Below are positions 877 through 51,585 of a stretch of 64,000 nucleotides of DNA, in pieces. A program made the translations under genes and the position numbers. The stretch is from Amphiscolops sp. MND2022 (Eukaryota), in the NCBI GenBank assembly GCA_964187785.1, contig OZ076414.1:47926001-47990000 (forward strand). Reading direction: 5' to 3'. The notes below the pieces were generated by a model, which saw only the letters and a list, made by a program, of their open reading frames with translations, was not told the origin of the DNA and searched no databases. Within the stretch, counting starts at the first letter, position 1. The number at the start of each line of letters is the position of its first letter.

Positions 877-1948
877 TGTTGCAGGCTGCCGACTGTGATG
901 GCAACCTCTACACTATCGACCAAAGTGTACCTATGGCCCTACCCGGCACATTGCCAATATAATCGCAATTGTTAACAAACTCGAAAACAATATTTGTATT
1001 TTTGCTATTAACATATGTAAATTAGTTTTACGTTTTTATGAATTTAGTGCAGTTATAATTTGACAGCAAGGTACACTGACAGGCAGAAAGAAAACGAGTT
1101 CAAATATTTGCCTGTCCAGTATATTTAGCATAGCCGCGTACGGCGTATTAGCCAATCTAGTCTCATTTATAGCTGCTACAATACGTTTACTGCTAATCAG
1201 AAAAGACCGATAAGGCCACTTGGCCTAAGCGGTCTTATTGCACTTTGTTATTGTACTGTGAAATTACTGAGTAGTTATAAAAGGACAAACGTGGCTTTGA
1301 AGTCTAATTAGCCTTATTTGTTGAAATATTGCTGACGATGCTATTATATGGAATAAAACCTGGAACCGCTGATAAACCAAACAAGCCTTTTCAATCTTTG
1401 AAACTCTGATATGATATTGGGTATAGACATAATCATAACTCAGTGAAATACATATTCTGGGATGTCATATAGTCAATTTCATGAAAAATCAACATGTAGT
1501 GTTGCCCTATTCTTCCTATGTGGAAATGAAATCGAATTTCCCGTGCGGCCATTGGCCGTATAAACCAACATGAATTTATTATGCATGTGAAATTGTTTTA
1601 TACAAAAAGTTACGCCTGTAAACATTTTGACCTATACGTCCCGCGGCCTTGCTCAGCACTTTGATCTAACCGCTCCCACAAGCCCCCGGTGACGTAATGT
1701 TGCTATTTGTAGTGATGATGAATGCTATTTTTAACCTGTAAGTTATTTATAGTAACACTCCACTATTTTACCGCGTGTCATGCCCACTTGGGTTTATATA
1801 CCCAACCCGGGCATTTGAACGACACAATTTTTCACTTGAAATGCATTTATTCAGTTGCTCTGTAGTTATACAAGTTTTGTAAAACTCTCCTACTCTACCC
1901 CATTACAGGAACAATTTCTTCCCGTAGAAACGCTTTTTTGCCTTCCAC
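877..1948 (+). repeat. E1 5' LTR, truncated by internal deletion
   Basis: Colinear with 26219-27291 (roughly 85% by eye). Breaks just after the leader start codon and joins the RNase H end (CAATTCAATTTT, QFNF). Confidence 0.8.
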
Positions 1949-4169: not shown

Positions 4170-4199
4170 TCAGATATTTGAAATCTGAAAGTAGTTGAC

Positions 4200-6050: not shown

Positions 6051-6447
6051 TGTTACAACAGACATTCGGGTCGTTTTGCGTAGAATTTATCCTAACCGAT
6101 TTTGTCGGAGTATAAATACTCCTAGTTTCGTTTTCCGTTTTCTCATCGAAGTTATCTCTAGGGTTCTCTCTTCTTTCAGATTTTAGAAGCTTCAACATCT
6201 CCTTCTGAGATTCAATGAGGAGATTCTTGATCTCGGAAGTTATTTCCTCCTTCAAAGAAGCCCTTAAGTTCTCCAAGAGGCTATTTTCAATTCGGGGTGA
6301 TTTTGGTCTAGATGGACCCGTTACTTCTACGTCCTGGTTTGAGGAACAGGGGTTTTCCATTACTATTGGTGAAACAAAACCTTCACTTACGTTTCTATCA
6401 CCTTCTTGTTGATCATTCCTTCTTTTCTGGCTTCTTGTTGTTGACAT
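6051..6447 (-). CDS. Gag N-terminal leader inside the E2 3' LTR (132 codons, reads out into flank to 5938)
   Basis: MSTTRSQKRRND...NDPNVCCN; near-identical peptide is in frame with Gag in the 5' LTR (ORF 19336-20322). Confidence 0.7.
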
Positions 6448-8717
6448 TTTGTTGTAGAAAACACTTATCTTGAAGAATTGAAATTCTTTCGGAGATACTT
6501 TCTAACAGAGTTAGGCGAAAATGAGAGTTTGGCGAAGTTGAGAATTCAACTGAATTATACAATTGCAAAAGACTGAGTCCCTCAGCCAACTAAAATCTTC
6601 GTATATATACCCTCCTCGCATCATTTGATCACAACTAAAATTCCCAAATTTCCTTGAACAAATTAGTCATTTCCTGTATTTTTGATGAAAAATTCATTCT
6701 TTCCCAATTTTACGTCGACTTTTTGTCAATTTTTGAGACACGACAATCTTTGCTTTATATTAGTCATCAGGCATAATCACATCATTTCATCTCGGCGTCC
6801 TTTTTATTTCCTCCCAAGCAGGAAGTAGATAATACTTCAGTCTGTCAAACCGGAAATATTTCCCTGTTTTGCTGCTTTGGTTCGTAAGAAATTGACGCGG
6901 AGATGACGTTGACGTGAACAACTAAAACCTGATTTTGAATTTCCACTTGAAGAAAATGCTATGACTAATGTTTTCAGCCTTGGAATTTCCAAAGATGCTA
7001 GGAAAAATAGAACCAAAAGGTATAGAATTAGCAACGATTTTTAAATTGAATTCAATTTAGATGATTATTAATTAATTAGAACAAGTCAACGAAGTATTGA
7101 CGTTTACATTAGACTACTAAAGTAATTTAACTGCAACACTTGACCATTACAAAACTGGCTAGAACGTTACGGGAATATGACGTGTTAATCAGGAAATTCA
7201 AAGCGTAAAAATCTTCGCAAGTAAATCTTCATAACTCACGAAATTATAGATTGATGTCGTCAAATTAGATCAACGAAACAAAACAACTAGTCACTATAGT
7301 AGTTACAAATGATGAGGTATTTAAACGTGATTTTTATGTACAATTGAGGCAACAATGAACATAGTTATTGTGGAAAGATACAAATGTGGGCATTGCATTA
7401 GAAAAAATTTGATTATGTTATTAAAAATATAGCTTTCTCCAGGTCATATTTCACTGCTTCACGGACACGTCAAAACGACGTCAAGTTATTCAAAATAGTA
7501 TCCAAAGTCTGTAACAGTTAATACAAAATGTAGAGTAACAGCAGTCTCTTCTAGAATAAACGGTGACTTTAGTCATAAAGAGTAGGAAAACCCTATTTAG
7601 GTTATATTGTAACGTGATTTCAATCGGCCAGTACCCAAATTGGCGAGGCCTAGACGTAATCTGTCGGGTTTTTGTTCTAATCTTCGTTGAGCTCTAAATC
7701 GTCCTTAAACGTTTCCTTTTCGTCATTTTCATAATACCGGTATTCATTTCACTATAGTGAATGGACTAAAACAGCTATTTTGATGGATTTTGGACGTAAC
7801 GCGGACGTACGTATTAGCATTAGCCTTAGTTCGCTGGTATTGGACGTAGCATTGACGTAAATTTGGAATGGAATCTAGCTTGGTGTTATAGCTGTGACGT
7901 CACACCGACGTCTGATTTGGAATACTTTCTACCTCGTTAACTAGTTAGTGGCGGAATGCTGACGTCACGATTATAGTAATATTTGCATGTACCTTTAATA
8001 TTTGTTTCCTCAGCGACGCGGTATCGTCCTATTCTACATTAATTGCTGTTCAAAGTGCAATTAAGCTACCTTTCTTAGAAAAGACGTAAATGTTTCGGCG
8101 TGCCATCTCAATGTATTTTCTAGTTTAGATCTGATTGATGTTCTTTCCCGATTGACGACTTTGGTAATGTTTTCGTTTAGATCGGTCTATGGTCTTTGTT
8201 TCAAGACGTATTCTTAAATAAGTTTTCAGGTGGCGAATGTTTCTATTCTGACGTGATAAAAGCGTCCTGCCGGAAGTGTATGAAATCATTTTGGTTCATT
8301 CTAGTTTCTGTTCTCTTTTCCTTTTAAACTTTACGTAAGTTAGACGAACGTTTTCGTATTTCCAGTCACAGTTTATTCAAGATTGGGTTTAAAGTTTTCA
8401 AGTTAGTAGTTGAAATACCATTTGGGGAATCGCAGGCTGCACCCATGGCCTCTTCCGATCCCCACTCGTCTGCAATGGCAACCCAGACCGGGAGCGGGCT
8501 GTGACAGGGCCACTCCTCTGGGGAAAACACCTGGCTGTCTTGGCAAAAACATTAGTGGAGGAGGCCTCGTTTCAGTATCTTCCGGGTCGTCAAAGCTGCG
8601 TCTCACTTCGAGATCGTTTAGTGGGCTTGCAGGACCGAAGTTAATCTTCCTGAGGGTTCCTGGGGGCGTGATGAAATATAATATAATGAGGAATCTTCTT
8701 GATGCACCTTTTCGACA
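6051..8717 (-). repeat. E2 3' LTR
   Basis: Minus strand reads TGTCGAAAAGG...TGTTGTAACA. Colinear with 19785-22454 (2-4 differences per spot-checked 60-mer). The upstream purine tract is weak (GACGAAAGCA), so the 8717 boundary is partly inferred. Confidence 0.8.
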
Positions 8718-9053
8718 TGCTTTCGTCGGGACTTTCAGGGCTGTCTGGAATTTCTTCACTCGCTTGTGCTTCGTCGTTCTCTTCTTGTTGTGGGTGAGAC
8801 TTAGAATCGATGGAGGCCAGACTCGAGTTCAGTTTTATTTTTTGTAGCTTGCTTCAAGCGAGTCTGCAGACACATCAAAATATTCTTCCTCGTCGGCTAC
8901 AGCTTCTGCGGAGGACAGGGAATTTTCCAGTATCACCCTGTAATTGGGTATTGCCTCTCTAGGAAGAGGGGTTGAAGATCTTTCCACAAGATCTCTTTCG
9001 TCTTCACTCGACGAAATGTCAATTAAGTCATAGACGTTTTTGAGGGAGTTCAT
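8403..9053 (-). pseudogene. E2 sense accessory ORF straddling the 3' LTR start
   Basis: Acidic MNSLKNVYDLIDISSSEDE... and EENDEAQASEEIPDSPESPDE, then YFITPP...GCHCRRVGIGRGHGCSLRFP, which is preserved in both LTRs. Frameshifted. Confidence 0.55.
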
Positions 9054-9099
9054 TTTGCGTCGTCGCTGCTGAGTCGTATGTTACAGGGCTGCTGAATTT

Positions 9100-9470
9100 T
9101 TCTTTTGATTGTTCCACAATGAATTTGAGATCAATAAGGACTAAGGAGAATATTGGGATGAATCCCTCCATTCTGATTGGTTGAACAATCATTTTAATCC
9201 TTTTTAATCATCAGGTGTTGACGTTATGTCAACGTCGCTTTTTATTGGCTGCAAATTAAATTGTTTCGCTCAGCCAAGTTTGTCAACGTTATGCTGACGT
9301 CATTTTCGCTAGCTTAGCTAACTTTTGTTTTGTCACCGTTATGATGACGTCATTGTAGATCATAGGATTAGTTTTCTAACCTTAATGACCTTTTGCCGAC
9401 GTTATGTCGACGCCAATTTCGTTGGTGATTAGCCAACTTTAGGTTTTGTCACCGTTATGATGACGTCAAT
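9100..9470. promoter_or_regulatory. Putative bidirectional promoter between the divergent E2 accessory genes
   Basis: TGACGTCA at 9295, 9345 and 9461; repeated TTTTGTCACCGTTATGATGACGTCA; ATTGG (reverse CCAAT) boxes; lies between ORFs pointing away on both sides. Confidence 0.5.
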
Positions 9471-9759
9471 TTTTGGTTGTTGTTTTCATCTTCAGGTTTT
9501 GTTTTCAGATTCTGAGCTATTTCACAATCGACTCACGTCCCACTGTTTCTTCTATTGATCCCGGTGCCCAGAGCGGTAATGAATCACATTGTGTGTTCTC
9601 GGAGAGAGACGTGCGTCAGAGTGACGCAGACGACATTCGCCCACGGGTTGTTGGTAAGAACTTCATTCCCTGATCCATTAAGCTTTTGTGAATAATACTA
9701 CTATCAGATAGGCCTTTTCTGTTTCTTATTTTCACAGCTTAGATTTTCTTGAGGCGTCG

Positions 9760-12700
9760 ATGCTGGGAATGTGCTTTTCTTTTCTAGAGCCCGTGGTGAA
9801 ATCTACTCCTCTTCCTGGTACAGGTTTGGATGTTCCGCCTGTGACCACCTCTCCTGTGACGCCTTCTGCTGACCCTGCGAGTGTTCCTTGTGGGTCTTCT
9901 GCACCTGTGTCCGTTGGTGGTGAGACTCCTGTTGCGTCAGTTTCGAAGCTTGACGTTGTCTCTGCGAAATTGGTCGCTGATTCTTCTTGCGGAGGCGAGA
10001 TAGTATTCCCCACCGGAGAGAAAGATGACGTCTTTGGGACGGAATCTTCGAGAGCTGGGATCCTTGACCAGACCTCCAGCTCACCTCAATTGACTCCTTT
10101 CTTGACTGGATTCGGGAAAGCATTCCCTGGACTGACGCCGTCTGATTCCAAAAGAGAGGTAGGGTTGACATATTTTGTTTGTTCCTTAGCTATTATTTTG
10201 GTTGGCTGCTTGGTCATACATGTTGACGTTACAGTTGCGTCCGCTGCTGCAGAAAGGACTGGGACAGGCTCGTCTGGGAAGAAAAAACGTCAACTGCGCG
10301 TTCAGACTGTGAGCGGTAATGAAAATTTCTTTGTTCGTGAAAATTGAGCTTGGCCGTTAGTGTGGCACATCGAATGCGACTTTGGCTTGTTTCGTAGATT
10401 CTGGTGATTGTGCTGCTCAAGGAATCTCTGGAGTCAGTGATTTGGACGTTTTCAGGACCGAACCTGCTGAAGTTGGCCCCGTTCTAGCGAGTGAGTATTC
10501 TTGATTCTTGTCGTGGTTGTAGTCGTTGTTTTGTATCACGTTGGGTGTTCTGTAATCTGTATCTAAGTATTTGTCGGTTTTGCTAGTCCCATAGATGTAG
10601 TTTGAATGGTGTTAATCGGTAGTTGTGTCGTTTCGTAGGAATGCAAGATCTCATGACGCGGATGGAGAGCAGTCTGGAGGCAGTTGCTTTGCGCGGGAGC
10701 CCCGTCAAGAAGTACAGCAGCCGACATCATCTGCGAAAAGATATGGTGGGCGACCACCCTATCTTTAGCTTGTTTGTCAGTGGAGCTAGCAACGGGTCGG
10801 TATCGCGCTTTCACTGCATGATCTGCAAACGTGATGTTTCCATGTTGTCACGTGGGGCGAGGGAGTTCCTCCGCCATTAATCCGGCGATCGCCACTGGTC
10901 TCGAGATGTGGCATACCGGGTCCAGCAAGGTCTGCCAGTTTTTGACCAGCTCATGAAACCCCTAGAGTTGACGTCAAAGGAGCGAGCGGCATACCTAAGT
11001 CAAGATGTAGTGGATAAGGACGAGGGATTCAGTTTCCCTGAGGACCTGCTGCCGGCGTGCACTCGGGTAGATTCCACGATTCCCCTGCTCACCATGGTGA
11101 ACTGTGTCGCAGAGTTGTGTAGGTGGGGTGGCAGCTACACCTTGTTGCGCAAACTGTGGGGCAATTTCCGTGCTACTTTGGGGCGTGACAATCCCCTGTA
11201 CAGCCTCCGTTGGAACTGTCCTGAGACACTGGTTAGTAATTTCATATTGAGGAGTTTGTCTTCTTTCTTCTTTTTTTCTCTTTTCTGTCCCTCGTGGACG
11301 TATCGTGGTCGGCTTGTAAAAGTTGTGTGGCAGCTGAGTGAGTTGGGGGATTTGTGTTTTAGTCGTTGAGTTGTCGTGCCCTCTTTCCTCGGGTTCTGCG
11401 CTCCATCATTTTTTGCGTGACAGCCTTCAACTGCTACAGCGTGCGCTTTGAAGAGCATCCAGATGGCCAGTACTGCTTTGTACTAACTTGGGAGGGCAAT
11501 ACCCTATTGGACCTTTGCATCAATGTCGAGCCTTCGGGTCAGCGGGTACCCCAGTCAGAGTTGTCGTCCCTGTCTCGCATCAAAACAAGTCTGCCTTCAG
11601 CCTCCTTCCCCGTCAGCATTCGTGGTGTCAGCCCTTCGATTCTGCGAGTACTCAGCGACGAACGCAGTGACGGGCATCGTTTTGTGTATGCTCGGGAGTT
11701 CTCTGCTGATGTGTTCCTGCACTGTTATCGTGTGGCTCGTCAGGAGAATTTTGGACTGTTGGAAGTCACCACAATGGTCGATTTCTTGATGTTGCGTCTT
11801 CGCGGGGCTCTGCAGGAGCGTTGGATGGAGGACTGGCCCGAGCTCTGCCGTTGTGTGGTCGCCGGGAAGGTGTCCTTTGATGAACTGCGCGGAGTCGTGA
11901 CGGAGCTGATTTCGATTTGGAAGACTGTCCGTGAGTACGTCCGGTACACGGCCCTCGACATATCAAGAGCGAGTCCGACAAGGTGGGTATAGTTTTGTTT
12001 CAGAGTGCTATTTTGTAGTCATGCGGTAGGGTGTCGCCACCATGTGCATTTGGCTAAGTGTTCATCGTATTGTTGCTATTTAGATGCGAGGCACTGACAC
12101 ACTCGTCTATTCCGAGACGACGAACAAGCTGCGACTGGGGATGATGCTTCACGTTCTTGATCTGTGTAAGTTGTGCTGTTTTGGTTCTTTCTTTCTCTCT
12201 GTTCTGTTGTGGTTGATATTGTAGATCATTTAGTAAACTGGGTGGTGTGATCGTCGTCGTCATCAGGTTGTCGTCTAGGTATCGTGGTCTTAGTTCTCTG
12301 TTGTGTTTAGATCACTGCACTTTCGTAGAACAAAGAGCTGGACGTGGCGACTACGCATTCCATGCATATAGTGAGATATGCCAATTTGTGTACTGCTTGC
12401 TGGTTCGCAGTCGTAAGGTGTCTAGTCTGCCTCCTCTAAACGATTGGGACTCATACATGGAGCCTTCGAAACTGGACGCATTTGAGAAGGCTAGCAGTGA
12501 TGATTTCCTGGAGAACCATGAGTTTGGGGTCGCGTTGCATCGATCAAACACTGACGTGATGTGTGAATTCCGCAATCGTTGCCGGGAATTTGTGGATCGT
12601 CTGGTGGACATTATCTTGGGCCAGCAGGTCGTATCCTCCGATTTCCTGCAGGGTTGTATTGCTTTTGCCCCGAATTGCTCCTCGAAGGTGACGATCGTCA

Positions 12701-13626
12701 TGTCTTCCAGCTGTTCTCTCGGCGGTCCGCGTGCTCGAGCGTTGTGGCTGTCTCTCCGGCAGTGATGCCCAGTCGAGTCGTGAGGAGTTCGCCACATTTG
12801 TTGTCGATGCTAGGACGCGGCATCGAGAATCAGAGAAAAGTGCAGAGCAGATCAAAGATGTCACCAAGTGTCTGTTCTCTGATTACAGCTTCATGTCACG
12901 GAGAAGTCTGGTCCAGGTGCTGAAAGTGTGCTGTTTGGTGGTAGATCGCCCCCAAAGAAAAATGCCGGACATTGAGATTGATTTGAAAGACTGTGCTGTT
13001 CCGGTTGCCGTTGTGACGTCGTCTCTGAGGGGCGTCCAAAGTCTCGTGTCCTCCCCCGGGTACAAGCAAGGCGCTTTCTTCACCCAGTGAACAATGGAAA
13101 GCGTTCGCGATGCCATTGCCAGTAGTCGCGATTTCATGTCCTGTGCTAGTTTCGACCCTCGGGAGAGTGTGTCGTGTGGCGATCGTTCGTCCTTTGTGCG
13201 AAAATATTCTTCAGCTTTTGATGCTTACTTGAGCCGTAAGAAGAGTGAAGCCACGAAACAATTGCACAGTGCAAACCGACAGCCGCGCTGCGTCCTTTTT
13301 CGGAATCTGGTGGTTCCGGTGGGTCAAGTGTCTGTGGTTCTCTTCGCTCTGCTGTACTGCCCTCTCCTTCGTTTGCTGTTGCTTCTCCTGGATCTGGTTC
13401 TGATAGTGGGACGTCGAGGCAGCGTACGTATACCGCTGAGTCTTCCCTGGCTGCTATTCCTGGACAGAAAAAGGAGCTGAAACCAGTCGATAAGGAGCCC
13501 GTTGCTAAGAAAGAGTCGTCAAAGACGAGTTCAGGAAAAGAGTCTGTGAAAGATCAGGATAAAGATGGGCAGAAAGGTACAGTGCCGACTAGAAAACGAC
13601 CGGGAGCTAAATCCAAGAGCGAGTGA
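9760..13626 (+). pseudogene. E2 antisense spliced cargo gene: disordered N-terminus, BED/TTF-type zinc finger, hAT-like fold
   Basis: FHCMICKRDVSMLSRGAREFLRH*SGDRH. Phase-0 GT-AG intron 11232-11362 joins ORFs 10908 and 11366 in frame. Further candidate introns at 10159-10234, 10492-10638, 11983-12310. C-terminal DFLQG/LYCFCPELL...REEFATFVVDAR; K/S-rich tail ends 13626. Confidence 0.7.
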
Positions 13627-13911
13627 AATTTGCAACTGAGACTTTGTATAACTGCCGTTTTGAGATTGTAGTGATAGTCTTTATAGTTCTATAGTGCATA
13701 CTGATATATCAGGTTGTATTTGTTGTATGTTTGATGATTTTATTTTGCTGGAGTTAGAAAATTAGATGGTGGTAAATGGCTCCCCAGCAAAATAGTACAG
13801 AACAAGTTTGGAGTCAGAAAAAAAACGAGTAAAGCAATAAAAAGTAGAATGCCTGTAATTGAAGTTGTCAGGTCGGTTCGATCTGGACACTTGATAATGC
13901 TCTTTTTCTTC

Positions 13912-16900
13912 TTATTGAGTCGTAGTGATGGCGTCAAGTCGTCTGAAGTCAGGATTAGCGTTGGGTTTGAGATTAGGTCGTAAATTGTATTTTGCTGTTT
14001 TCCTTGGATTGTATCCAACTACTGTAGGCGGCGATTTTGGGGGAATAGGTGGACTTTCAATAGGTGGGGGGCGACGTATATATGGATTATCCTCCACGTT
14101 TGTAGTAAGATTCGAAAAGTCCGGAGACGGCGGCGCTGCGTCGTTCTCAGTTTCAAGCTGATTTTCCGGTACTTGTTGCGTCGCTGTTTCGTCCTGCGTG
14201 TTCGTTACTTTTTGTGTTTCTGCTTGCTGATTATTGTGTATATTCTCTCGCGTCTCGTGTTCGTCAATTTGTTTCTTGAAATCCATTTCCCACGAAACTG
14301 CGTACCACTCATTGTGTGACATTTTGACATCTGGATCCGGAAGATATTCGCTTGCTTGTACCGTGACGTCTGGCATACGTTGTTCTGGCTCGTAGTGTCG
14401 TATGCGAATTCTGTGAAGCGTTTGTGTATATCTTGTGCCAAGTTTTCGTATCGTTTAGTTGTTATTGGAAAGCACTTTGATCACTACATACGGTCCAGTC
14501 CAGATGCAATCTTGGAACGCAAGTTTTGTCGACTAGTTGTCGGCTTTCGCGTTAAGTATGTAACAATATTCATTGATCTTCAGTGGAGCTGCGGACGCTT
14601 TGCGGTTGTAATATTTTTTATATTTGAGGTAGGAGAGCATGATGTTATCTTTCGCCGTCGCTCGTATCTCATCAATTTGTTTCTGGATTTGCTCTGATAT
14701 ATCTGAGTTGGGCGTAGTTTTCCATTTTGGCTTGATTCCCAGTTTTAAGTCAAGGACATTGTAAGGTATTCGTCCGTGGAATACTGTAGATGGTTCGCAG
14801 CCTAGAGTTTCGTGGTATGTTGTGTTATAGTTCCTTACCGCGATTTGAACATATTTGTGCCACATTGAGCGTCTTTCTCCCGTCGAAACTTTTAGTGCTG
14901 TTTTGATTGCAGCGTGTGTTCTTTCCAAAATGCCAATCGTTTGTGCATGCTTCGTGGACGCGTGGCTAATTTGGATTTCGAGGATCTGTGCTACTTCGGT
15001 TACGATTTCTGATCGGAATTGCGACCCTTTATCCGATAGAATCAGTGTTGGAAAGTATGCATGTATTGTCATGACGTCGACAATGCATCGTCCGATTGTT
15101 TTCGCTGTGACATTCTGCGTTGGATATGCAAATAGGTAGCGTGAAAATACATCGATCATTGTAACAATGTTTTGGTATCCTGCAGAGTTTGGTAGGTTCG
15201 GTAATATATCAATTTCGAGGATATCTTCCGGGCCTAGGACGTGTTCTGTATTGTTGATCATCTTCGGTCTGATTTGGCTGCTGCTGATTCGTTTGTATTT
15301 GATGCAGTCTTCACATTGCATTACCCACTGTTTGATTCTTGTTGCTAAACTGGGGTAGTAATACTTTGATTGGCATTCTTGAATCATTCTTGTGATCCCT
15401 GGGTGTTTGCCCATTTGTCCATGAATTGCTTTCAAAAGTTCTGTAACCAGATGTTCGGGAATTAATATCTGATGGTGAGTAACTTGACCGCATTCTCCGT
15501 AGTATTTGCGCATTAGTACTCCGTCTTTGACTAAGAGACTGTTTTCATGTACTAGGAGACGTTTTGCTGTCGGATCAGTTTGCAAAAGGTGCTTGTCGTA
15601 TTCTTCGCATATTAGTTTTCTTTTGATTGCCTTGAATACTGGGCTTGAATCCTGTTCAACTCCGATGCGTGCATCTTCTTTTATTGCTCCAAAAGTATAG
15701 GAGGCTTTGTTGATTGGGATTGGAGTTGTTTCCTTTATGGCCAGCTTTATTTTTGTCGTTTCTTCGTCGAGTGCACTTTGTTTTGCTTGTTCTTTTTGTC
15801 GGAGGATTTCTTCTTCGGTTTCTATTGTTTCATCTGGAAGAAAGAAAAGTTGTTCTTCGTCTGCGACGTCAGTGGATTGTAAATTGACTTGTACTGGACG
15901 GATTGTAATGTCTTCTCGGATTTTTAATTCAACTCTTTCTTTGGGATTGAGTTCAATGCGCGACAAGAAATCGGCCGCTGTGTTCTGCGCACCAGCCACG
16001 TGCATTATGTGAAAGTTGAATTGTAGCACCTAATCACACGCGTTCCACAGCGTAGGTGGTATGACTTTCGTTTGAAAGAAGCGCGTGACTGATCTGTTAT
16101 CGGTCATTACGAGTGTTGGTAGCGTCGTTTCCCACAAAATATGGCTAGATCCTAGGAATGCATGGTAAATTGCCAGGAATTCTTTGCAATAGATAGACAT
16201 TTTCATTTGAGCTGGGGAAAATACTTTCGATCCGAATGCGACTGGGGCAAACGTTTTCTTTTTGGAGTTGATTTTCTTGTCATTGTTTTCTTCAATCATT
16301 AACGCATAGCCAGAGGCTCGAAAGCTGGCATCCGTCATTAGGACGTATTGTTGTCCTGTGATTGGTTGTTTGAGAGCCAATCCGCAGGCTTGCGCCAGAG
16401 CTGCGTTGATCGCTTTGTAATGGTCGAGTAGCTCTTCAGTGATTTTGATTTGTTTATCTGCTTTCAACAGCTCATAGAATCCGAGTAATTTTTCAGATAA
16501 TCGCGGGATGTAGTTGCGATAATAATTGACAAAAGCCGATGTATCTTTGTACTTGCTTTTTTGATTTCGGAAATCGTACATTTGCTACGAATTTTTGTAA
16601 TTTATGGTCTTGGGGGCAATTCCTTGCGGAGTGATTGTTCTTCCAAGAAATTCGACTTCAGTCACCCCAAAATGGCATTTTTCTATGGTTAGTTTGAGCC
16701 TCGCTTGTCTGATGCATTCGAAAACAGCCCGGATGTTGCGTATCAGCTGCGTCACTGAATTGGCCGCAATCCCAATGTCATCCACATATTGTGCGCACTG
16801 ATCTGCTTTGATTACTTTGTCTAAGTATTCTCTCATGAAACTTGAGAATGCTGATAAAGCGCTGCTGATAAAGGGCGAACGTCCTGCTTGCGAAGTTAAA

Positions 16901-18595
16901 TGCCAGCATTTCTATAGATCTTTGATCTGCCATCTGTAAGCAGTGGTATGCTTGCGAGCAGTCTAGTTTGCAAAACAATTTTTTACCAGCTAGGTGTTGA
17001 GCTGCGTCTGACAAGGTGCTAACTGGATGGTTATTGTTGATGTAGTCATCTGAGATTAGTGCGTTTATTTTTCGCAGGTCGACAAGTAGACGTAACTTGT
17101 CATTCGATTTGCGTTGTGCAAAAATTGGACTTGCATATTTTGAGAATGGTAGGGTCGTTTTTCTGCCGTACCTGTGCATTAGCGTCAAGTCTACTGTTAG
17201 GTCTTCTTTCAAATTGATTGGTACCGGCAAGCTTCGCGTGTAAATTGGACGCTCGTCTTTCGGAGTTAGTTTGACTTTGAAGCTGTTGTTGATTCCAATG
17301 TCAAGGCGATGGCGATCAAAAACATCATTGTATTCGAATATCGTTTGCTCGAGTTGCCTCCTGTCGTTGCCTCTGGTTTAGTTCACGGATTTCTTTTCAG
17401 GATCCGTCGTTGGATTGGCGTATGCTCTTCTTCATTTCCTGGATTCTCGGGTGTGGGGAACCTGAGAATTTCGTCACTTTGATCAGTTTCGTTGGATTTC
17501 ATGAGATAATTTACGTACATGTGGGTAACATCAGGATCTTCTAGCAGTTTGAGTGCAGCGGCGTCTACTGGTCGTATTTGTTTCGTGTCCTCGGGTTTGA
17601 GGATTTGTAGTTCCGCCAGTTTTGTGTGATTATTTATTGTATGAGGGAAATCCGTTAAGTTGGCGATTCGGATGTTGAGCTTTTTATTGTGGGCTGTCGC
17701 CAGTGCTGGTGCGACAATAATTGTTGCTGTTTCATCAAATTGTGGCAGTGGTTGTACCGCACCAGTGACGTCATTCGTGTTTGTGGTTATTACTATTGCG
17801 TTCACTGTTGTCTGTTGGTGCGGTAGCGTTTGATTTCCTTCTGCCATTATTTGGAGCGGTTTCGGATTACATTTTTTCATCTCGTCTGTCATGGCTAGCG
17901 TCATTTCGACGTGCGGAAAATTGATGGTTCCATTGGCAGTGTCAATTACTGCTTGGTGATTTCTCATGAAGTTCAATCCTTTGATAGGAAATGACGTTTT
18001 CGATAGGATGACGAAGGTATCCGTGAAAGTATATGTCCCAATGTTGAACTGAGTGTCCGCTGTGGCTATTGGTTGCTCTAGTTGTGCGTTTGCGCATTCA
18101 ATCTTGAAGGGAGGCTGGGGTATTCTTTTATGACACACTATCGCTATTCATTTTGATCGCGTTGTAGTCTGACCAGGACATGGCGTTGATGAACGCGCCT
18201 GAATCGACAAGTCCATCCTTTGTTATTTCTCCAACTTCAAGCGGGAGATAGAGCATCCTTCTCTTTTTCTTGAGGATTATTGTCGAGTGGAGGGGTATAT
18301 ACGTCTCTCCATCCTTTTTAGTGACATACTCTTTGATAGAGTTGAGAGATGCGGGGAAATCGTTTGTGAAGATAAGTGCTTGAGTGGAGCCGTTAGTATC
18401 TTCCTTAGTTTGTGGTGACGATGGTTGGTCGTTCTGGGCGTTGTCGTTGTATTCTATCTTGTTTGCAATGGTGAATTCTGTGTTGGTGAGGGGCGGCTGG
18501 GTGGAAAGGTCCATGTTTTGTTTTGAATTATCCCGATAATCTTTATCTTGGGGGTAAGTTTTTCCGTGTTCAGTTTGGATTTGTGGTCTTTTCAT
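13912..18595 (-). pseudogene. pol: E2 pol: protease, dUTPase-like linker, RT, RNase H, integrase
   Basis: LVDSGA (protease); LRLLVDLRKIN, KLDCSQAY, QYVDDI (RT); MTDASF (RNase H); HGQMGKHPG...CEDC, EIDILP, SDKGSQF, ILERTH (integrase). Broken by frameshifts and stops. Confidence 0.95.
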
Positions 18596-18747
18596 GGAGG
18601 CGAGTGCTTGTCGTCGTAGCCACTCCTCTGTTGGTGTACCATTGCACTCGATTGTTACGTTAATGACGTATGTGGTAGGGGGATCTTCTGTTGCATACGC
18701 CCTTGCGACTACTGTTTCCCCGAAGCGCAGGCGCGGCGTAATTAGTT

Positions 18748-20180
18748 TTATGACTCAGTGACAGAATTGGCTGTCGTTGGTTGGACGGGGATGTCCCTCT
18801 TTGGTTCTTGAGTATTGTGACGCTTAGGTCGTGGATCGTTGGCAGAGTTGGCTCCATTCCAACAATCTTCCGTTTTGTGTGGTTTGCAGCAAGTGTCGCA
18901 TTTAAGCGGTTTGCCTGCACTAGAGTTGGCTTGGCCATTGTTTCTCTTGGTTTGCATCCATTTATCCCTTTTCATTTTTCTACATTCTGCTTTGTAGTGT
19001 CCAAATTTGTTGCAGTAGAAGCGATACCCCTTTTTGACGTTTTGCGTTGTGTTGTCGACCTGTTTGGACTCAGTTTTTGGTGGGGCTGGTTCTACTTTGT
19101 TTAGTGGTACCAGGGTCACTTCGTCTGGCGCCCCAAGGCCGTTAAGCCTCATTTCCTTTTCTAGGTGGAGTACGATGTCGTTCTAGGGTTTGTCTTCAAG
19201 ATACGCCCTATTTAGTATTTTCTTTACGTGGTCTGGCATTTTTGCATAGATCGACTTATCAATAAATTGTTGGGCTTCAGAGCCGAAGGCTTCTTTGGCA
19301 GTTTTTTGAAGTACATCCAGAAATTCGTGGAGTTTCTAGTTCGAGGGATCAAATTTGAGCGCATCCCATTCGCATCTTGCTTTGGCCATGGACAAATAGT
19401 ATCCGAAACGTCGTTTGAAAATCGTCATTATTTCATCAAGGGAATCTTTTTTCGTGTCTTCAATATTGCAAAACGCCTGTAAGGCGTCTCCTCTGAGCAG
19501 GGAGTGAAAATAGTTTATTTTTTGGATTTCCGTGAGACGTGGGTACATTTTGATGTTATTACGAAAAAGGTCTTCGAAAAGCTCAAATTTTTCCGACTTC
19601 CCGTCGAAGGTTGGGAGTGACGCCGTTAGTGCTTTTGGCATGGGCAGTGCAGTTCCATCATTTTTATCCGTTGCAAATAAAGTCCTTGCCACTACTGGAC
19701 GTTTTTTTGACGTCGGTTGACTTTGAGACCGGGCTTTCGTTCTTTTTGGCTGGTTTGTGGAGTCGGTTAGGACTCCTGTCACCATGTTACGACATACATT
19801 CGGGTCGTTTTGCGTAGAATTTATCCTAACTGATTTTGTCGAAGTGTAAAAACTCCTAGTTTCGTTTTCCGTTTCCTCATCGAAGTTATCTCTAGCGTTC
19901 TCTCTTGTTTCAGATTTTAGAAGCTTCAACATTTCCTTCTGAGATTCAATGAGGAGATTCTTGATCTCGGAAGTTATTTCCTCCTTCAAAGAAGCCTTTA
20001 AATTCTCCAAGAGGCTGTTTTCATTTCGGGGTGATTTTGGTCTAGATGGACCCGTTACTTCTACGTCCTGGTTTGAGGAACAGGGATTTTCCATTACTAT
20101 TGGTGAAACAAAACCTTCAATTACGTTTCTATCACCTTCGTGTTGATCATTCCTTTTTTCTGGCTTCTTGTTGTTGACAA
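18748..20180 (-). pseudogene. gag: E2 gag including the in-LTR leader
   Basis: LPTFDGKSEKFELFEDLF..., knuckles (R)FYCNKFGHYKAEC and CDTCCKPHKTEDC. Leader start codon is TTG here (20180) versus ATG in the 3' LTR; internal stops. Confidence 0.85.
19770..19784 (-). promoter_or_regulatory. E2 primer-binding site TGGTGACAGGAGTCC, probably tRNA-Leu
   Basis: Directly follows the LTR end ...GTCGTAACA; resembles the complement of Leu tRNA 3' ends (TGGTGTCAGGAGT) at 12 of 13 positions. tRNA identity is inference. Confidence 0.75.
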
Positions 20181-22454
20181 TTTGTTGTCGAAAAGACTTA
20201 TCTTGAAGAATTGAAATTCTTTCGGAGATATTTTCTAACAGAGTTAGGCGAAAATGAGAGTTTGGCGAAATTGAGAATTCAACTGAATTATACAATTGCA
20301 AAAGACTGAGTCCCTCAGCCAACTAAAACTTTCGTATATATACTCTCCTACCATTATTTGATCACAACTAAAATTCCCAAATTTCCTTGAACAAATTAGT
20401 CATTTCCTGTATTTTCGATGAAAAAATCATTTATTCCCAATTTTACGTCGACTTTTCGTCAATTTTTGAGACACGACACTCTTTGCTTTATATTAGTCAT
20501 CAGGCATAATCACATCATTTCATCTCGGCGTCCTTTTTATTTCCTCCCAAGCAGGAAGTAGATATTACTTCAGTCTGTCAAATCGGAAATATTTCCCTGT
20601 TTTGCTGCTTTGGTTCGTAAGAAATTGACGCGGAGATGACGCTGACGTGAACAACTAATACCTGGTTTTGAATTTCCACTAGAAGAAAAATGCTATGACT
20701 AATGTTTTCAGCCTTGGAATTTCCAATGATGCTAGGAAAAATAGAAACAAAAGTTATAGAATTAGCAACGATTTTTAAATTGAATTCAATTTAGATGAAT
20801 ATTAATTAATTAGAACAATTCAACGAAGTATTAACGTTTACATTAGAGTACTAAATTAATTTAACTGCAACACTTGACCATTACAAAATTGGCTAGAACG
20901 TTACGGGAATATGACGTGTTAATCAGGAAATTCAAAGCGTACAAATCTTTGCAAGTAAATCTTCATAACTCACGAAATTATAGATTGACGTCCTGATGTC
21001 GTCAAATTAGATCAACGAAACAAAACAACTAGTCACTATAGTAGTTACAAATGATGAGGTATTTAAACGTGATTTTTATGTACAATTGAGGCAACAATGA
21101 ACATAGTTATAGTGGAAAGATACAAATGCGGGCATAGCACTAGGAAAAATATGATTATGTTATTAAAAATATAGCTTTCTGCAGTTCATATCTCACTGCT
21201 TCACGGACACGTCAAAACGACGTCAAGGTTTTCAAAATAGTATCCAAAGTCTGTAACAGTTCATACAAAATGTACAGTAAAAGCACTCTTTTCTAGAATA
21301 AACGGTGACTTTAGTCATAAAGAGTAGGAAAAACCCTATTTAGGTTATTTTGTAATGTTTTTTCAATCGGCCAGTACCCAAATTGACGAGGCTTAGACGT
21401 AATCTGTCAGGTTTTTGTTCTTATCTTCGTTGAGCTCTAAATCGTCCTTAAACGTTTCCTTTTCGTCATTTCCATAAGACCGGTATTCATTTCACTATAC
21501 TGAATGGACTAAAACAGCTATTTTGATGGATTTTGGACGTAAGGCGGACGTACGTATTAGCTTTAGCCTTAGTACGCTGGTATTGGACGTAGCATTGACG
21601 TAATTTTGGAATGAAATCTAGCTAGCTGTTATAGCTGTGACGTCACACCGACGTCTGATTTGGAATACTTTCTACCTCGTTAACTAGTTAGTGGCGGAAT
21701 GCTGATGTCACGATTATAGTAATATTTGCATGTATCTTTAAGATTTGTTTGCTCAGCGACGCGGTATCGTCCCATTCTACATTAATTGCTGTTCAAAGTG
21801 CAATTAAGCTACCTTTCTTACAAGAAGCCGTAAATGTTTTGGCGTGCCATCTCAATGTATTTTCTATTTTACATCTGATTGATGTTCTTTCCCGATTGAC
21901 GATTTTGGATATGTTTTCATTTAGATCGGTCTATGGTCTTTGTTTCAAGACGTATTCCTAATTAAGTTTTCTGGTGGCGAATGTTTCTATTCTGACGTGA
22001 TGAAAGCGTCCTGCCGGAGGTGTATGAAATCATTTTGGTTCATTTTAGTTTCTGTTCTCATTTCCGTTTAAACTTTACGTAAGTTAGACGTACGTTTTCG
22101 TATTTCCAGTCACAGTTTATTTAGGATTGGGTTTGAAGTTTTCAAGTTAGTGGTTGAAATACGATTTGGGGAATCGCAGGCTGCACCCATGGCCTCTTCC
22201 GATCCCCACTCGTCTGCAATGGCAACCCAGACCGGGAGCGGGCTGTGACAGGGCCACTCCTCTGGGGAAAACACCTGGCTGTCTTGGCAAAAACATTAGT
22301 GGAGGAGGCCTCGTTTCAGTATCTTCCGGGTCGTCAAAGCTGCGTCTCACTTCGAGATCGTTTAGTGAGCTTGCAGGACCGAAGTTAATCTTCCTGAGGG
22401 TTTCTGGGGGCGTGATGAAATATGATGAGGAATCTTCTTGATGCACCTTTTCGA
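19785..22454 (-). repeat. E2 5' LTR, outermost 2 nt missing
   Basis: Matches 6051-8715; ends TTTTCGA then a 79-bp unrelated filler (22455-22533). Confidence 0.85.
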
Positions 22455-22533
22455 GGTAGTCTGCGACTATGATGCTTGAGATTGACCCTTCGTTACTGAT
22501 GGCTTCTTCTACGATGAACACATCCGACGACAT

Positions 22534-24387
22534 GCCAGAATCGCACCGCCATATAACAGTAACCTTTGCGGTTTGTGAATTCCAAGGAATATGTTCTTTC
22601 CTTGGCCACTTGTACGGCAATGTCCTCGGTGCAACGAAGGAAAATGTGATGGAAGATTTTTTGAAAACAAACTCACGCTAAGATAAACCAACTCACTGAG
22701 AAATCTCGCCCTACATAGATAGTGAGGTAATACATACTGTGAGGTTATCAGCTCTCCAATCGAAGTCGGGGAACCTTTAGTGGCTGGTGAAGCAAAAATA
22801 AGTCTCCTCCGTGTGGCATAAAAAGCCCATAAAAAGAGATTTCAGTCGTCTTCCTTAACTAGTCCAGGCTTGACGATCCCCCCAATGTGGCCATGTAATC
22901 GTTATAGAAAAGGAAACTGTCTCCGATGTTCACGAGAGGGGCATCAATGAAGAACAGCTTCTCTTCTTCCAACTCTAGAGGGGTAAGGATGTATCCCTCT
23001 TTTCCTCGGACTTGGTGAGTCACTCTGCCCGTGTCGGCATCAAGTTCTCTGAGATGTTCGAACCTCCACCGTTGGTCGCGTCGTAAGTGTCCCTCAGTCT
23101 TGTAATGACGTAGATTCTCTCGTGCGTCTTTGAAATAGATTGATACGTTTGCTTTACATATCTGACAGTAAAATTTATACCGGTTATGGATGGGATCAAG
23201 CGGCATAGAGACAAAGGTCCTTGTCCATTGAATTCCTTCAAAATAGGCATCTTTCATGACTTTGCTTGGCTTACACAGCATTCTTCTTCGTTTACGTGGA
23301 GGACTAGTAACGACAGTGACAGGTGAATGCGCTTGGGCGAGGAACGCCAACGGCCTATAATCTCCACTGCTGTAGCTGCTGCAAGAATTTTGAGTCAACA
23401 CTCTAGTCGGATCTGAATTAGTCGTTTTTGTATCCAGGATCCTGGAAGCGGAAATGGTTGGCGGATTGGCCTCAGAGGAAGTCTCGAAGTTACGGAGATC
23501 CTTATCCGAGTTTAGCGCCCCGCTCCTGTATCCATCACTATCTGCGGCGGTGCTTTCTCCCCCTGAACTGGACTCATATCCTGGACCGGGGGTACCAGCT
23601 CTACGAGGGATGTTCCGGGATGGGCGCTTGTGCAAAAGGTTTCCTTTAGTGACCTTTCTTAGCAATGATTTCATCCTTTGAATAATGAAATCACAGATTC
23701 GTTGGCTATCGTACGCAAGATCGTAAAAATCTGCCCTCACTGAAAGCAATGGTCGCGTGGCCTGCAGGCAGTTCAACTGGCTCGTAAGTAGTAAAATATT
23801 TCCTAATGGCATCTGTTTCGCTTGGGGTTGATTTTCTCTCGGATGCAGACACCTTGGTCCTATAGAGTGCCTGCTCAGAATCACTATTCCCTGACGATTG
23901 GCGCAGTTCCTTGTCAAAGTCAGGAAAGACATCTGGGTCAAGCGTGAATGTGCTAGGTTTGGCAGTGGGCAAATCAACCCTGGAGCTGTCAAAAAGTTCG
24001 CCCGGGTCACTCGTATCAGAGTAGAGGCCTCCACAATCAGAAGTTTCGGACTGGGGTTCTTCAGCATTCTGATTAGCCACATTTGGCAATTGACCCACGG
24101 TTACCAGCAACGGCTCAGACTCGGATAATTTAGCTATCTCAGGAAGGCTCTCTTCGGTCGTTTGGGCTGGATGCTCTAACTGGGGAGTTGGAGAGTTGGC
24201 TCCGGGAGCCCGTCCTCTCAATGAAAGCAGTGACACTCTCTTCGGTAGACCAGCTCAATTTGAAAGCCTGAGATTCTGGTTGGACGTCTTTTTCTAGCTT
24301 AATCTTTTCTTGGGCCTGCTTTTGTTCTTCATTACCCTGGTCAACCACAGGATTGGTGAATTCTGACATTACCCCGTCGTTCGACAT
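22534..24387 (-). pseudogene. E1 antisense cargo gene, 5' part
   Basis: MSNDGVMSEF..., long Ser/Pro/acidic region, PPRKRRR, KFYCQICKANVSIYFKDARENLRHYKTEGH; donor GTATGT at 22737 after WRADNLT; next exon KIFHHIFLRCTEDIAVQVAKERTYSLEF continues into 6050 and below. Confidence 0.75.
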
Positions 24388-25088
24388 ATCTAAACGGAAA
24401 GGGATAAACTTTAGCGGGTATATTCCTGAATACACGTTCATAATACAGCTTAACAAATCTTCTAGAAGGGAATTGAAAAGTATGGCAACAAGCCCAAAGT
24501 GGCATACTCAAATTGACAGAAAGTAAATGAACGTGAACAGGTCCTGATCAAACCTAATGCTGTTGAAAATAAAACAAAGACCAGATAGTTTATCTGTTGG
24601 CGTGTGGAGTAGAAGTAGAAAATTGGAAGACTAGTACGCGCTTCGTGAGGACCATTTGGACCAAGACGGCTGTGATACCAGATGGGAAGGAAGAACTTAG
24701 GTACACTAGGAGGAGATACTAGCTGGATTTGATAGGGATGTCCACTGTCCCTGTACGTCCAGAAGATGGAAAGATTAAAGACTTGGAAGACTGAAATGAC
24801 TATCTGACTAACTAAAAGGAAGCTGATAATGTAACAATTGATGAACTAAAAGATCGATGAGAGGTGCAAATGCTGAGAAAGTGGAGTTCGTGGCGGCAAG
24901 CTGGATTTGATGTCAATTATTTATACAATTATGGATATTATTCTGTGGATGGAATCTGCCAGGGAAACCTATAGAAGTTATATGTTTCGAAACTTCTCTT
25001 CTGTCACGGGAGTATTTTTTTTACAAATTTTATTTTATTTCATTTATTTCCTCTTTTAAACTATTATTACCTAATTCGCCATTTTGGA

Positions 25089-26363
25089 ATGCAGACAAAA
25101 CGAACTCTTGCCGTACATGGCCTTAGGTCTCACACATCGCCTCTTGAAATTCTTAAGTGGGAATCAAGAGTTAATAAACACTCAATGTTGTCTTTGATGG
25201 TTTCTTGCCAGTGTAGACAAACCACTGAAGTGATGATGTAAACAAAGCGGATTATTGGATTCATCGAAAGGTGTTTGGAAGAATTTATCATTGTAAAGAA
25301 ATGCGGCGAATTACAAAACCCCGGGAAAGTAATCACGAGTCTTGAAGAAAACTTTAAGCGGATTCGGAAAGAAGAAATTGTCATTTAGTCTCTTGGAGCC
25401 TACAAATTCAGTCGACTCATAAAGCTTAGAAGTTTGAAAACTTACAAAATTGCGAAAAAACTGATAAAAACCAGCTACATGGCACAACGATTCCCACAAG
25501 ACTTTCAACGCGCTGCGTCCCAAAGAACAGAAACTGTATACCTGTCTAGCGATGATGAAAAGGAAATGGACGACGTTAGTATAACGTCCGTATATACCTA
25601 CAATTGTCATCAGAAGATGAAGAATACGACGATGAAATCATGATGATGGCCCAATGTGTTGAAATGGAATTATCAGCACCCATTCCCGTCCCCGGTCCAT
25701 CAACGTCAAATTTTGGGAGTACCAGTGTTCAAAATAGGCCATCCAGATGCGTGACGCCGAAACCAGATTTTGGTCCGCGGCGTTATTTCGATCAATCCTT
25801 CTTTTCTCTGGGGAAAGGAAATAACCGATACGGAAGTGACCGTATACGAAATAATCACCCAATCAGTTTGTGTAGCGAACTTTTTCCTATGATAGACACT
25901 CCTATCTCGCCGCCACCCGAAGATAAAGGACCATCCTATGATTCTTCCCCAAATTACACCGTATATGCGGAGCTGCAGCAGTCTTTGGATACAATTACAA
26001 ACTACTTCCAAGGGTTGGAAATTAATGGAAACGGCCCGCTTGCGAACTGCTCGGACTGCGTGATTTGTGGGAAATCAACAATGCAACTTCAGCGTGAAGC
26101 AGTATCCGATTATTTAGTCAAAACATCTATTCCAGGAGAAATGTCCTTGCAGGTCGAGGCGTGCAAAAGAGCCTTTATAGAGGGAATGCAAGTTAGAACA
26201 CTTTTACTACTACCTGATGGCTGGCGCCTGTGATGGCAACCTTTACACTATCGACCAAAATGTACCTATGGCTCTACTCGGCACTTTGCCAAAATTATCG
26301 CAATTGTTAACAAACTCGAAAACATTTTTTGTATATTTGCTATTGTCAACATATGTAAATTAG
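25089..26363 (+). pseudogene. E1 sense accessory ORF straddling the 3' LTR start
   Basis: MQTKRTLAVHGLRSHTSPLE..., acidic LSSDDEKE / SSEDEEYDDE, NCSDCVICGKS, then after a frameshift CDGNLYTIDQNVPMALLGTLP, which is also at the start of the 5' LTR (894 onward). Confidence 0.6.
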
Positions 26364-27840
26364 TTTTACGTTTTATGTATTTAGTGCAGTTAATATTTGA
26401 CAGGTAGCTACAAAAAACGAGTTCGAATATTTGCCTGTCCAGTATAGCTAGCATAGCCGCGTACGGCGTATTAGCCAATCATAGCCGTGCTAGACTAATT
26501 TATAGCAGCTACAATAAGTATATTGCTAATCGGAACTGACCAATAAGGCTACTTGGCCTAAGCGGTCTTATTGCGTTTTGTTATTGTAGTGTGAAACTAC
26601 TGATTTGTTACAATAACACAAAAGGGGCCTTGAAGCCTAATTAGTCTTGTTTGTTAAAATATTGCTAACGATGCTATTATATGAAATACAGCCTGGAACG
26701 GCTGATCAACCAAAAAAGCATTTTTATTCTTTGAAACTCTGATGTAATATTCGTGATACACATAATTATAATTTAGTGAAATACATATTGTGGGTTGTGA
26801 TAAATCAATTTCATGAAATACAAACATGTAGTGTTGCCCTATCCTTCCTATGTGGAAGTGAAATCAAACATCCCTGGCGGCCATTAGCCGCATAAGGCCA
26901 ACATGAATTTTTTATGCATTTAAAAATGTTTTATACTTGAAACTACGCCTGTAAACAATTTGACCTATACGTCTCGCGGCCTTGCTGAGCACTTTAATCA
27001 AACCGCTTCCACAAGCCCCCGGTGACGTAATGTTGCTATTTATAGTGACGATGAATGCTATTTTTAACCTGTAAGATATTTATAGTAACATGACCACTAT
27101 TTTACCGCGTGTCATGCCCTCTTGGGTATATATACCCAAGCCGGGCTTTTGAACGACACAATTTTTACTTGAAACGCAGTTATTCAGTTGCTCTGTAGTT
27201 ATACTCCTATTTTGTAAAACTCTCCTACTCTACTCGATTACACGAACAGTTCTAATTTTTCCTCCTGTAGAAACACTTTTATGCCTTTCACTAGAAAACA
27301 GAAAGCAAAGGGCAGAAAGCCAAGAGAACTAGATGTTGTGCAACTACAGCGACTTGGATGTGATGTTAGGAGATGGATATTCAAAATCTGTAGAATGAGA
27401 ATTAGATAGTCTTATTAATGTCCCGGAAAGAAAACAAGACTTTCAGTCTTTTCCCATCAGAGAAAATTCGTCTCAAGATAATGAAACCAGATACATTAGC
27501 AACAGGAATGAACCTGTTAGGGAAGAGAGACTGATAGAGTCAATTAATATGCTATCGGGTGAAATGAATGCTAGGAAGTCTCGGTAAATGGAGACTATGA
27601 TGGACTTCATGCAAACTCAGATTAGCATGGCCATTAGTTGCGCCATAAGCGAGAGAATAATACCTGAAATACAAAACATTGTGGAAAATTCGCCTTTGAA
27701 CCGTCATGACGTTGAGCCTTGTACGTCCTAGAATGAGGATGAGTTTGTTAATAATTGGAAGAACAAAAATACAAAATTTACAAAGAAGGAGTCAATGTCT
27801 ACTTGCGATCTTAAGCAAGACACGGACTTTACTCCTTACA
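26219..27840 (+). repeat. E1 3' LTR, about 1.6 kb
   Basis: Homologous to 884-1948; first bases degenerate; ends ACTCCTTACA followed by the GTATT duplication. Confidence 0.8.
27281..27840 (+). pseudogene. Gag-leader remnant in the E1 3' LTR (about 186 codons)
   Basis: MPFTRKQKAKGRKPRE ... LIESINMLSGEMNAR ... ISERIIPEIQNIVE ... DTDFTPY plus terminal A; stops and frameshifts. Confidence 0.6.
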
Positions 27841-28179
27841 GTATTCGACCACGTTTTTTGATTCCTCATTATTCGGCTACTTAAACATCTCATTTTTCAC
27901 CTTCCGCTTAGTCCTGATTAGTTTGAATGTAGTGAAAGTTAGAAACAGTTCTACAATTGAATCTTGACGAATTTGTCTGACCAAATCCTGTAGGAAACAT
28001 TCGAAGAAAAGTTTTAGTTCTGCTAATACATTGACCACGGAATCCACGTTCATTCTGAAAATAGTATTGCCCTCAGTTTTCTCTTCTGTGCGCTTTCAGT
28101 TTTGTGCATATTGGTTTTTGCTGCACTATCATAAACCAGCAAAAACATATTAATACACATGTTGTTATATATATATATA

Positions 28180-36425: not shown

Positions 36426-36749
36426 TTGAATAGGAATGCAAACCTAGCAAAAATCTTGTAATTTTTTACGGTTGATGTTTTCCTCAAAAACTTTCGAAAG
36501 CCGAATCATCCCCAGCAATATTTGTTTCAGGACGAAAATGCTATTTTCGCAAGACTTTTCAAGGAAACCCTCTCATCACAGGAATAAGGCATAGCGAAAA
36601 TCTCGCAAAATCTTCGCAATGAAGGCTTTGTGTATAAGAATGTTAATGGCAAATCAAATTTCATTGCAGCCATTGTGAAATTGTTGCTATTTCGTTTTTA
36701 TTTTCCTCCCACATTTTACAAATGGGGAAGGAAAACCATTATCTGTGAT

Positions 36750-46732: not shown

Positions 46733-46839
46733 TTCAATTCTTCTTTCTACTTATTCTTGCGTCTCCGGTGAATTGTCTCTTCTGTTAATAATCTTCATGA
46801 TTTCGTCATCGGCTCCCCAGTGGTATTTAAGTTTATCGT

Positions 46840-51219: not shown

Positions 51220-51220
51220 T

Positions 51221-51511: not shown

Positions 51512-51585
51512 TCGTTTTTTCCCAAATTTTGCCAAATCTCCACAATCTCCACCTTTTGATTACTTGACTTGATGAACATAATTCA

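Follow-up and report, generated by a model that had tools for sequence, protein, structure and literature searches.

The window analysed here is a 64,000-nucleotide (nt) stretch of contig OZ076414.1 of Amphiscolops sp. MND2022 (positions 47,926,001 to 47,990,000, forward strand), which lies within a 1.07-Gb eukaryotic assembly (G000:C6) and contains two Ty3/Gypsy long terminal repeat (LTR) retroelements, E1 and E2, with E2 nested in E1. The Ty3/Gypsy affiliation was indicated by LTRs bounded by TG..CA, a target-site duplication and the domain order protease, reverse transcriptase (RT), ribonuclease H and integrase (PR-RT-RH-INT). The E2 LTR is 2.46 kb long. Each element carries one extra gene, hereafter the cargo gene, between pol and the 3' LTR and antisense to pol, and both window copies of this gene are broken by stops and frameshifts. 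Relatives of the two elements are young, with LTR pair identity of up to 99.9% and a 5-bp target-site duplication in seven of nine elements. Overall, E1 and E2 carry a homologous antisense multi-exon gene with three predicted introns at shared positions, and these introns probably persist because the packaged RNA would read them backwards.

The E2 exon before intron I ends with TGG AAC TGT CCT GAG ACA CTG followed by GTTAGT at 11232, and the corresponding E1 exon ends with TGG AGA GCT GAT AAC CTC ACA followed by GTATGT at 22737 on the minus strand. An earlier note on this DNA had read both sites as phase 0 introns, the one in E2 after WNCPETL and the one in E1 after WRADNLT, six residues after the aligned Trp. 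For E2 the sequence and the blind spliced alignment agree with that reading, and the E1 intron was borne out as well; with an E1-type protein on an E2-type copy and the reverse, intron I was recovered exactly both ways. The E1 acceptor, which the same note had taken to be mutated, was checked in the 30 best DNA matches per family. Intron I was GT..AG in 28 of 30 E2 and 28 of 30 E1 copies, the exceptions being L006, L019, L053 and the window E1 copy, which alone ends in AA. Removal of the intron restores the conserved reading frame, and the joined exons of intact copies stay open for 862-1207 codons until the first stop. The intron interior diverges faster than the exons, with identities to the reference copy of 0.92/0.91 (exons) and 0.84 (intron I) in E2 and of 0.90/0.88 and 0.77 in E1. 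A total of 81 indel events were counted in the 138-column intron I of E2 versus 11 in 639 exon columns, the copies being related and the events not independent. The commonest donors were GTAAGT, GTTAGT and GTGAGT. Two results weigh against the intron reading: the E1 indels did not separate intron from exon (6 in the intron versus 12 and 12 in the exons), and the branch-point motif YTRAY was not enriched (present in 13 of 40 introns, with 13.4 expected). Overall, intron I is predicted to be a spliceosomal (U2)-type intron.

By comparison of subfamilies, E1-type genes are predicted to have four core introns (phases 0, 0, 0 and 1); E2-type genes have three (phases 0, 0 and 1) and, in their 5' region, four further phase-1 introns (Table 1). 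The predicted E1 and E2 proteins showed 21% identity over 740 columns (E=8e-47; hhalign probability 100). Introns III and IV occupy identical columns and phases in this alignment, and both seed pairs showed the same coding distance from intron I to intron III (621 nt) and the same micro-exon length (82 nt). Against a fully shared set of sites, intron I lies one alignment column apart between the families, where MAFFT and hhalign place a gap upstream. The suggestion of the earlier note that intron I sits at the same codon in both genes thus holds in that both introns follow the Trp by six codons, but the spacing to the motif further downstream differs by one residue, so the sites as aligned are at the same codon or one codon off. 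A separation of the intron I sites by eight columns in a 56-sequence MAFFT alignment was an artefact of mis-called rows.

The positions were then mapped over 76 loci with an intron-blind spliced aligner; the set includes the four hand-annotated seeds, the 5'-truncated L149 was dropped, and four of the ten loci of one candidate set were annotated. The aligner scores GT and AG, and it is the positions, not the dinucleotides, that are the independent result. Intron I was in phase 0 and six codons after the conserved Trp in 72/76 loci; in two of the remaining loci it was in place with the Trp changed and in two it was damaged. The last intron was in phase 1 in 76/76 loci and the micro-exon had 27 codons in 71/76. 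In trees of RT and cargo, which left out L127, L129 and four loci without RT, the cargo type equalled the RT type in 18/18 E2-type and 32/32 E1-type loci. Because three introns match and the cargo and RT types agree, the simplest reading is that the gene with introns I, III and IV was already present in the common ancestor of the E1 and E2 families, as the earlier note had proposed for the intron that it described.

Synonymous divergence could be estimated in two of eight cargo pairs, with dN/dS of 0.04 and 0.05; in the other six, synonymous sites were saturated and the proportion of non-synonymous differences (pN) was 0.14-0.28. As judged from these substitution patterns, the cargo exons were shown to be under purifying selection, which speaks against the introns being passive fossils of an unexpressed gene or having been gained independently at equal sites. 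That explanation is very improbable. It would fit the broken state of both window copies, and the chance of two exact intron position matches (~8e-6, rough, under a uniform model) was calculated without proto-splice-site bias. However, GT..AG was kept while intron lengths ranged from 54 to 249 nt in all three frames, three positions match between the families, and the joined frame is read in natural copies. Spliced junction I was searched for in the genome with exact probes, which cover the two nearest families only; these gave 0 copies, versus 69 and 47 matches for the unspliced form.

Table 1. Positions of the predicted introns, cargo genes and element parts in the window.
Feature	Position	Strand	Remarks
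E2 cargo intron I	11232-11362	+	131 nt; phase 0; GTTAGT..TTTTAG
E1 cargo intron I	22661-22737	-	77 nt; phase 0; GTATGT..TTTTCAA; no terminal AG in window copy
E2 intron III	11983-12083	+	Phase 0; column identical to E1 intron III
E1 intron III	5358-5178	-	Donor damaged; micro-exon between E1 introns III and IV
E2 micro-exon	12084-12165	+	82 nt; equal length in both families
E2 intron IV	12166-12310	+	Phase 1; column identical to E1 intron IV
E1 intron IV	5095-5031	-	
E1 intron II	5602-5494	-	
Four predicted E2 introns	9654-9787, 10159-10234, 10316-10397, 10491-10638	+	Phase 1; low-complexity 5' part of E2 cargo
E2 antisense cargo gene	9527-13626	+	Predicted 8 exons; stops and frameshifts; 5' end approximate
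E1 cargo, 5' half	22534-24441	-	Long first exon with C2H2 finger, intron I, start of exon B
E1 cargo, 3' half	4191-6051	-	Rest of exon B to last exon; 4191 is the alignment end
E2, Ty3/Gypsy LTR element	6051-22249	- (gag-pol)	Decayed copy; inserted into E1 cargo gene
E2 3' LTR	6051-8505	-	Contains first ~130 gag codons
E2 5' LTR	19785-22249	-	
E2 gag-pol	13912-20322	-	Broken; Pfam domains DUF1759 (gag), zf-CCHC, RVT_1, Integrase_H2C2, rve
E1, Ty3/Gypsy LTR element	877-27840	+	Pol remnant on plus strand; gag and most of pol deleted
E1 5' LTR (part)	877-1948		
E1 3' LTR	26215-27840		
E2 sense-strand extra ORF	8403-9060	-	
E1 sense-strand extra ORF	25580-26233	+	
Likely divergent promoter region	9100-9500		Between sense extra ORF and cargo; putative function, from motifs

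Single introns are missing from some natural copies, and some public homologues read across predicted junctions. Intron III is missing from L217 (G000:C9:47181454-47191453) and L218 (C4:1762218-1772217), in which its flanking exons form one exon of exactly 217 nt (135+82) and introns II and IV are retained 135 and 82 nt away. Both loci are nested among four-intron lineages, and the exact fusion together with this nesting therefore indicates a precise loss of intron III; their cargo is still antisense. None of the 18 E2-type loci has intron II, again with unchanged orientation, and this difference between the E1-type and E2-type genes is a further gain or loss. In a set of 403 public proteins, P0399 reads through junction I and then into the apparent intron II, P0080 crosses junction III, and P0068, P0110 (from an 89-kb contig) and P0171 cross junction IV. 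P0399 and P0171 had no close match among the scored candidates of the assembly. The junction-crossing homologues may come from RNAs that were spliced in part, or from lineages that have each lost one intron. As read from these proteins, the joined frame exists in nature, which is independent support for the predicted exon joins. Two loci considered as lacking intron I (L203 and L213) were rejected, as the donor was kept and the deletion was imprecise, and L114 showed a partial deletion of intron III. Open frames of ~900 amino acids (aa), considered as intronless genes, proved to be the long first exon. A search for longer homologues with exon B found none, and two metagenome scans gave no confirmed relative.

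A gene that travels in an LTR retroelement would be expected to become intronless. Among 73 loci picked by cargo similarity, pol was antisense to the cargo in 68, on the same strand in 0 and not in range in 5, and four of these last five retain an antisense integrase-tail remnant. The antisense position plausibly shields the introns from splicing of the packaged RNA. An intron-containing gene, likely that of a hAT DNA transposase, would have landed as DNA in the common ancestor of both families, reversed and downstream of pol but ahead of the 3' LTR, where it would likely be transcribed from its own internal promoter and then spliced and translated. The packaged RNA is the pol-sense strand, in which the introns are the reverse complement; because the sense RNA reads them backwards and they would not be recognised, the unspliced RNA would be reverse-transcribed and the introns inherited like any DNA. 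Occasional loss of a single intron, as for intron III in L217 and L218, would follow from exact deletion or from short-tract exchange with a cDNA copy of the spliced mRNA.

Beta-globin retroviral and lentiviral vectors were built in reverse in order to retain intron 2 (PMC6775231), and sense introns were lost from mini-Tnt1 during reverse transcription (PMC2923131). The globin vectors, in which a gene with introns and a promoter of its own sits in reverse so that the packaged RNA escapes splicing, resemble the present elements in this layout; they differ in being engineered, whereas the system in E1 and E2 is natural and old. Sense introns can persist in retroelements too, which weighs against the shielding explanation. 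The plant Ty3/Gypsy element Ogre retains a sense intron (PMC4408406), and only about half of the forward-oriented globin vectors lost intron 2 (PMC6775231). The statement of the earlier note that introns survive reverse transcription only if antisense was thus too strong, although shielding by the antisense position is plausible.

The same note had also held that the introns explain the fixed orientation. According to that explanation, which is improbable but not as remote as the fossil explanation above, the need to keep the introns fixes the antisense orientation and sense versions would lose required introns. It agrees with the absence of same-strand loci (0/73), with the retention of introns across lineages in which synonymous sites are saturated, and with the precedent of the globin vectors (PMC6775231). 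However, the orientation may go back to a single event, one capture in an ancestor; it is unchanged in L217 and L218 without intron III and in the 18 E2-type loci without intron II, and plant antisense ORFs are reviewed without mention of introns in the available text of PMC7264820 and PMC11963269. Orientation explains intron survival; the reverse causality, in which introns force the orientation, is unproven, since a single capture may underlie all elements and single introns are dispensable.

Antisense additional open reading frames (ORFs) between pol and the 3' LTR (aORF-3R) were described in maize Grande, rice RIRE2, Retand/TRP28 and fungal Boty (PMC7264820, PMC11963269). The cargo genes of E1 and E2 share the features of this class, being antisense, located between pol and the 3' LTR and conserved in most copies of a Gypsy element, and a DNA-binding or regulatory role was likewise proposed for the known examples. 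They differ in their 4-7 spliceosomal introns, which are predicted and are conserved from one family to another, and in having no match to TRP28 (PF04195) on any exon scanned. The word "intron" has 0 occurrences in the available text of PMC7264820 and PMC11963269. In the literature searched, no conserved antisense gene with several introns was described for Gypsy elements, and the supplements of PMC11963269 could hold intron annotations. The conserved predicted multi-intron content thus appears to be new, antisense extra ORFs at the same position being already known from plant and fungal Gypsy elements. HBZ of human T-cell leukemia virus type 1 (HTLV-1) is a short bZIP factor that is driven from the 3' LTR and spliced. 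HBZ is an antisense gene (PMC11963269), and both HBZ and Ogre resemble the present system as cases of introns or antisense genes in reverse-transcribed genomes; Ogre differs in that its single intron is in sense and serves gag-pol expression (PMC4408406). Overall, a multi-intron gene was apparently carried inside an LTR element, by the trick of the reverse vectors, until the cargo proteins were only ~21% identical, and the shared intron positions date its capture before the split of the E1 and E2 families. The many young copies, together with rare precise losses of single introns, make mechanisms of intron loss testable in one genome.

The order of the cargo protein is a low-complexity N-terminus, an invariant CxxC..H..H finger, an RNase H-like segment predicted as a helix and three strands, and a C-terminal part predicted to be helical. 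With the model of exon 6, Foldseek ranked the Hermes hAT transposase 1-3 (E=0.012-0.02, below significance). With the model of the last exon, Hermes was at rank 3 (Z 5.5, root mean square deviation 6.8, 159 aligned) and was the only long-span match near the top, and Foldseek gave no match for this model. Hermes was thus the best or near-best fold match for two separate cargo exons, both matches being weak and below significance. The predicted parts, namely a C2H2 finger, a three-strand RNase H-like start, a helical region and C-terminal helices, follow one another as in hAT transposases (Hermes; 8edg, 4d1q, 8sjd). The cargo differs from them in that no sequence similarity was detected, Dimer_Tnp_hAT was not matched in the Pfam scans of the cargo, the first strands lack a near-invariant acidic column, and the gene lies inside an LTR element. 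Within residues 512-707, which from sequence motifs would be the span of the first strands with the first catalytic aspartates, no column had D or E in at least 37 of 39 sequences. In the alignment the DDE triad of hAT transposases was thus not found in the cargo protein. These models and alignments suggest that the cargo protein is probably a catalytically dead derivative of a hAT transposase.

Several results weigh against this derivation. The exon-6 model was poor, with a predicted local confidence (pLDDT) of 49, and a wide VIA search with it gave Pelota/Dom34 first and no Hermes row. Against the hAT ORFs of this genome, hhalign probability was at most 0.6 and hmmsearch performed no better than with shuffles. 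Pfam scans, run on individual exons and on homologues, yielded no cargo match over the curated cut-off, and several near-invariant D/E columns further downstream of residue 707 leave a catalytic role possible. A PDB sequence search with the cargo returned nothing. An alternative source of the cargo, either an ordinary gene of the host or another element with an RNase H-like scaffold, is unlikely, and the intron logic would be unchanged by it. The lack of a sequence-level hAT match would be expected from such an origin, the exon-6 model fits Pelota, resolvases and integrases too, and the finger fits generic C2H2 models better than zf-BED, which was found in one of 20 members (E=0.36). However, two separately folded parts reach Hermes in the right chain order, and no unlinked single-copy host homologue of the cargo was found among the loci examined, in searches that score best candidates only.

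Function can be proposed with less confidence than the hAT derivation: it is about an even possibility, slightly on the doubtful side, that the cargo protein would act as a non-cutting DNA-binding accessory factor for its own element, aiding its expression or its escape from silencing. A more tentative proposal still is that a large, active Gypsy lineage may have co-opted a hAT transposase rich in introns, which became an accessory gene that is antisense, transcribed independently and spliced. This gene would retain its introns while the element replicates via RNA, would be swapped as a cassette among pol backbones that are nearly identical, and would sometimes lose a single intron by recombination with cDNA of its own antisense mRNA. 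This reading, if true, would provide a natural high-copy system in which to watch intron loss in action. An origin from a transposable element (TE) insertion lacked support for plant antisense ORFs (PMC7264820); unlike these, the cargo here has a weak Hermes-like fold that points to a TE origin, and a hAT origin, if true, would show where an antisense accessory ORF can come from, which the available text of that article leaves open for plants.

The cargo region appears, from sequence identities, to be exchanged between near-identical pol backbones. The pol genes of L116 and L150 have 98% nucleotide identity over 4.4 kb and their cargos barely align. Similarly, L075 pol is 94% identical to L122 pol with cargos 52% identical, and between L075 and L077 the cargos show 86% but the pol genes 78% identity. 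No cargo exchange across the E1/E2 split was seen in the RT and cargo trees. The cargo copies without pol (L144, L146, L148, L190, L193 and L151) were considered as a donor DNA transposon, a reading rejected on account of their antisense integrase-tail remnant. In the first five of these, the intron-bearing cargo and the integrase-tail remnant lie in a unit of >24 kb without pol, the copies of which are 92-99% identical and have 88- and 185-nt tandem repeats, a 212-nt palindrome and a sharp downstream end. This unit looks like a secondary capture by another large mobile element.

The likely promoter region upstream of the E2 cargo contains four CRE-like and four CCAAT motifs, and likewise in L069; no CRE-like motif was found in E1-type copies. 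E2-type copies have AATAAA just ahead of the convergent integrase stop, and no depletion of AATAAA was seen on the element-sense strand. In both families a second extra ORF of 200-310 aa runs on the sense strand into the 3' LTR, divergent from the cargo; the Pfam scan of the E1 one gave no match. In both families, too, gag begins ~130 codons inside the LTR and continues through the LTR end (window 6051-6450 and 19785-20270).

At the insertion of E2, 90 bp of E1 are duplicated at both junctions (5962-6051 / 22534-22623) in place of a 5-bp target-site duplication, and the tail of a further internal region lies directly ahead of the E2 5' LTR (window 22250-22533). Together these suggest a truncated tandem or a rearrangement. 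Elsewhere in the window, another Gypsy-type family occupies 35728-51819 as a ~7.4-kb tandem repeat with gag-PR-RT-RH on the minus strand and a partial third unit. Plus-strand ORF fragments at 28135-30922, with a basic and low-complexity N-terminus, presumably resemble an ORF1-like region of a long interspersed nuclear element (LINE). A 356-nt tandem array, two inverted repeats and a 15-nt minisatellite were located at 31204-33300, 55427-55862 and 61084-61354. Finally, L180 (G000:C6:39637821-39643321) has pol with a convergent cargo last exon, which hints at the abundance of these elements.

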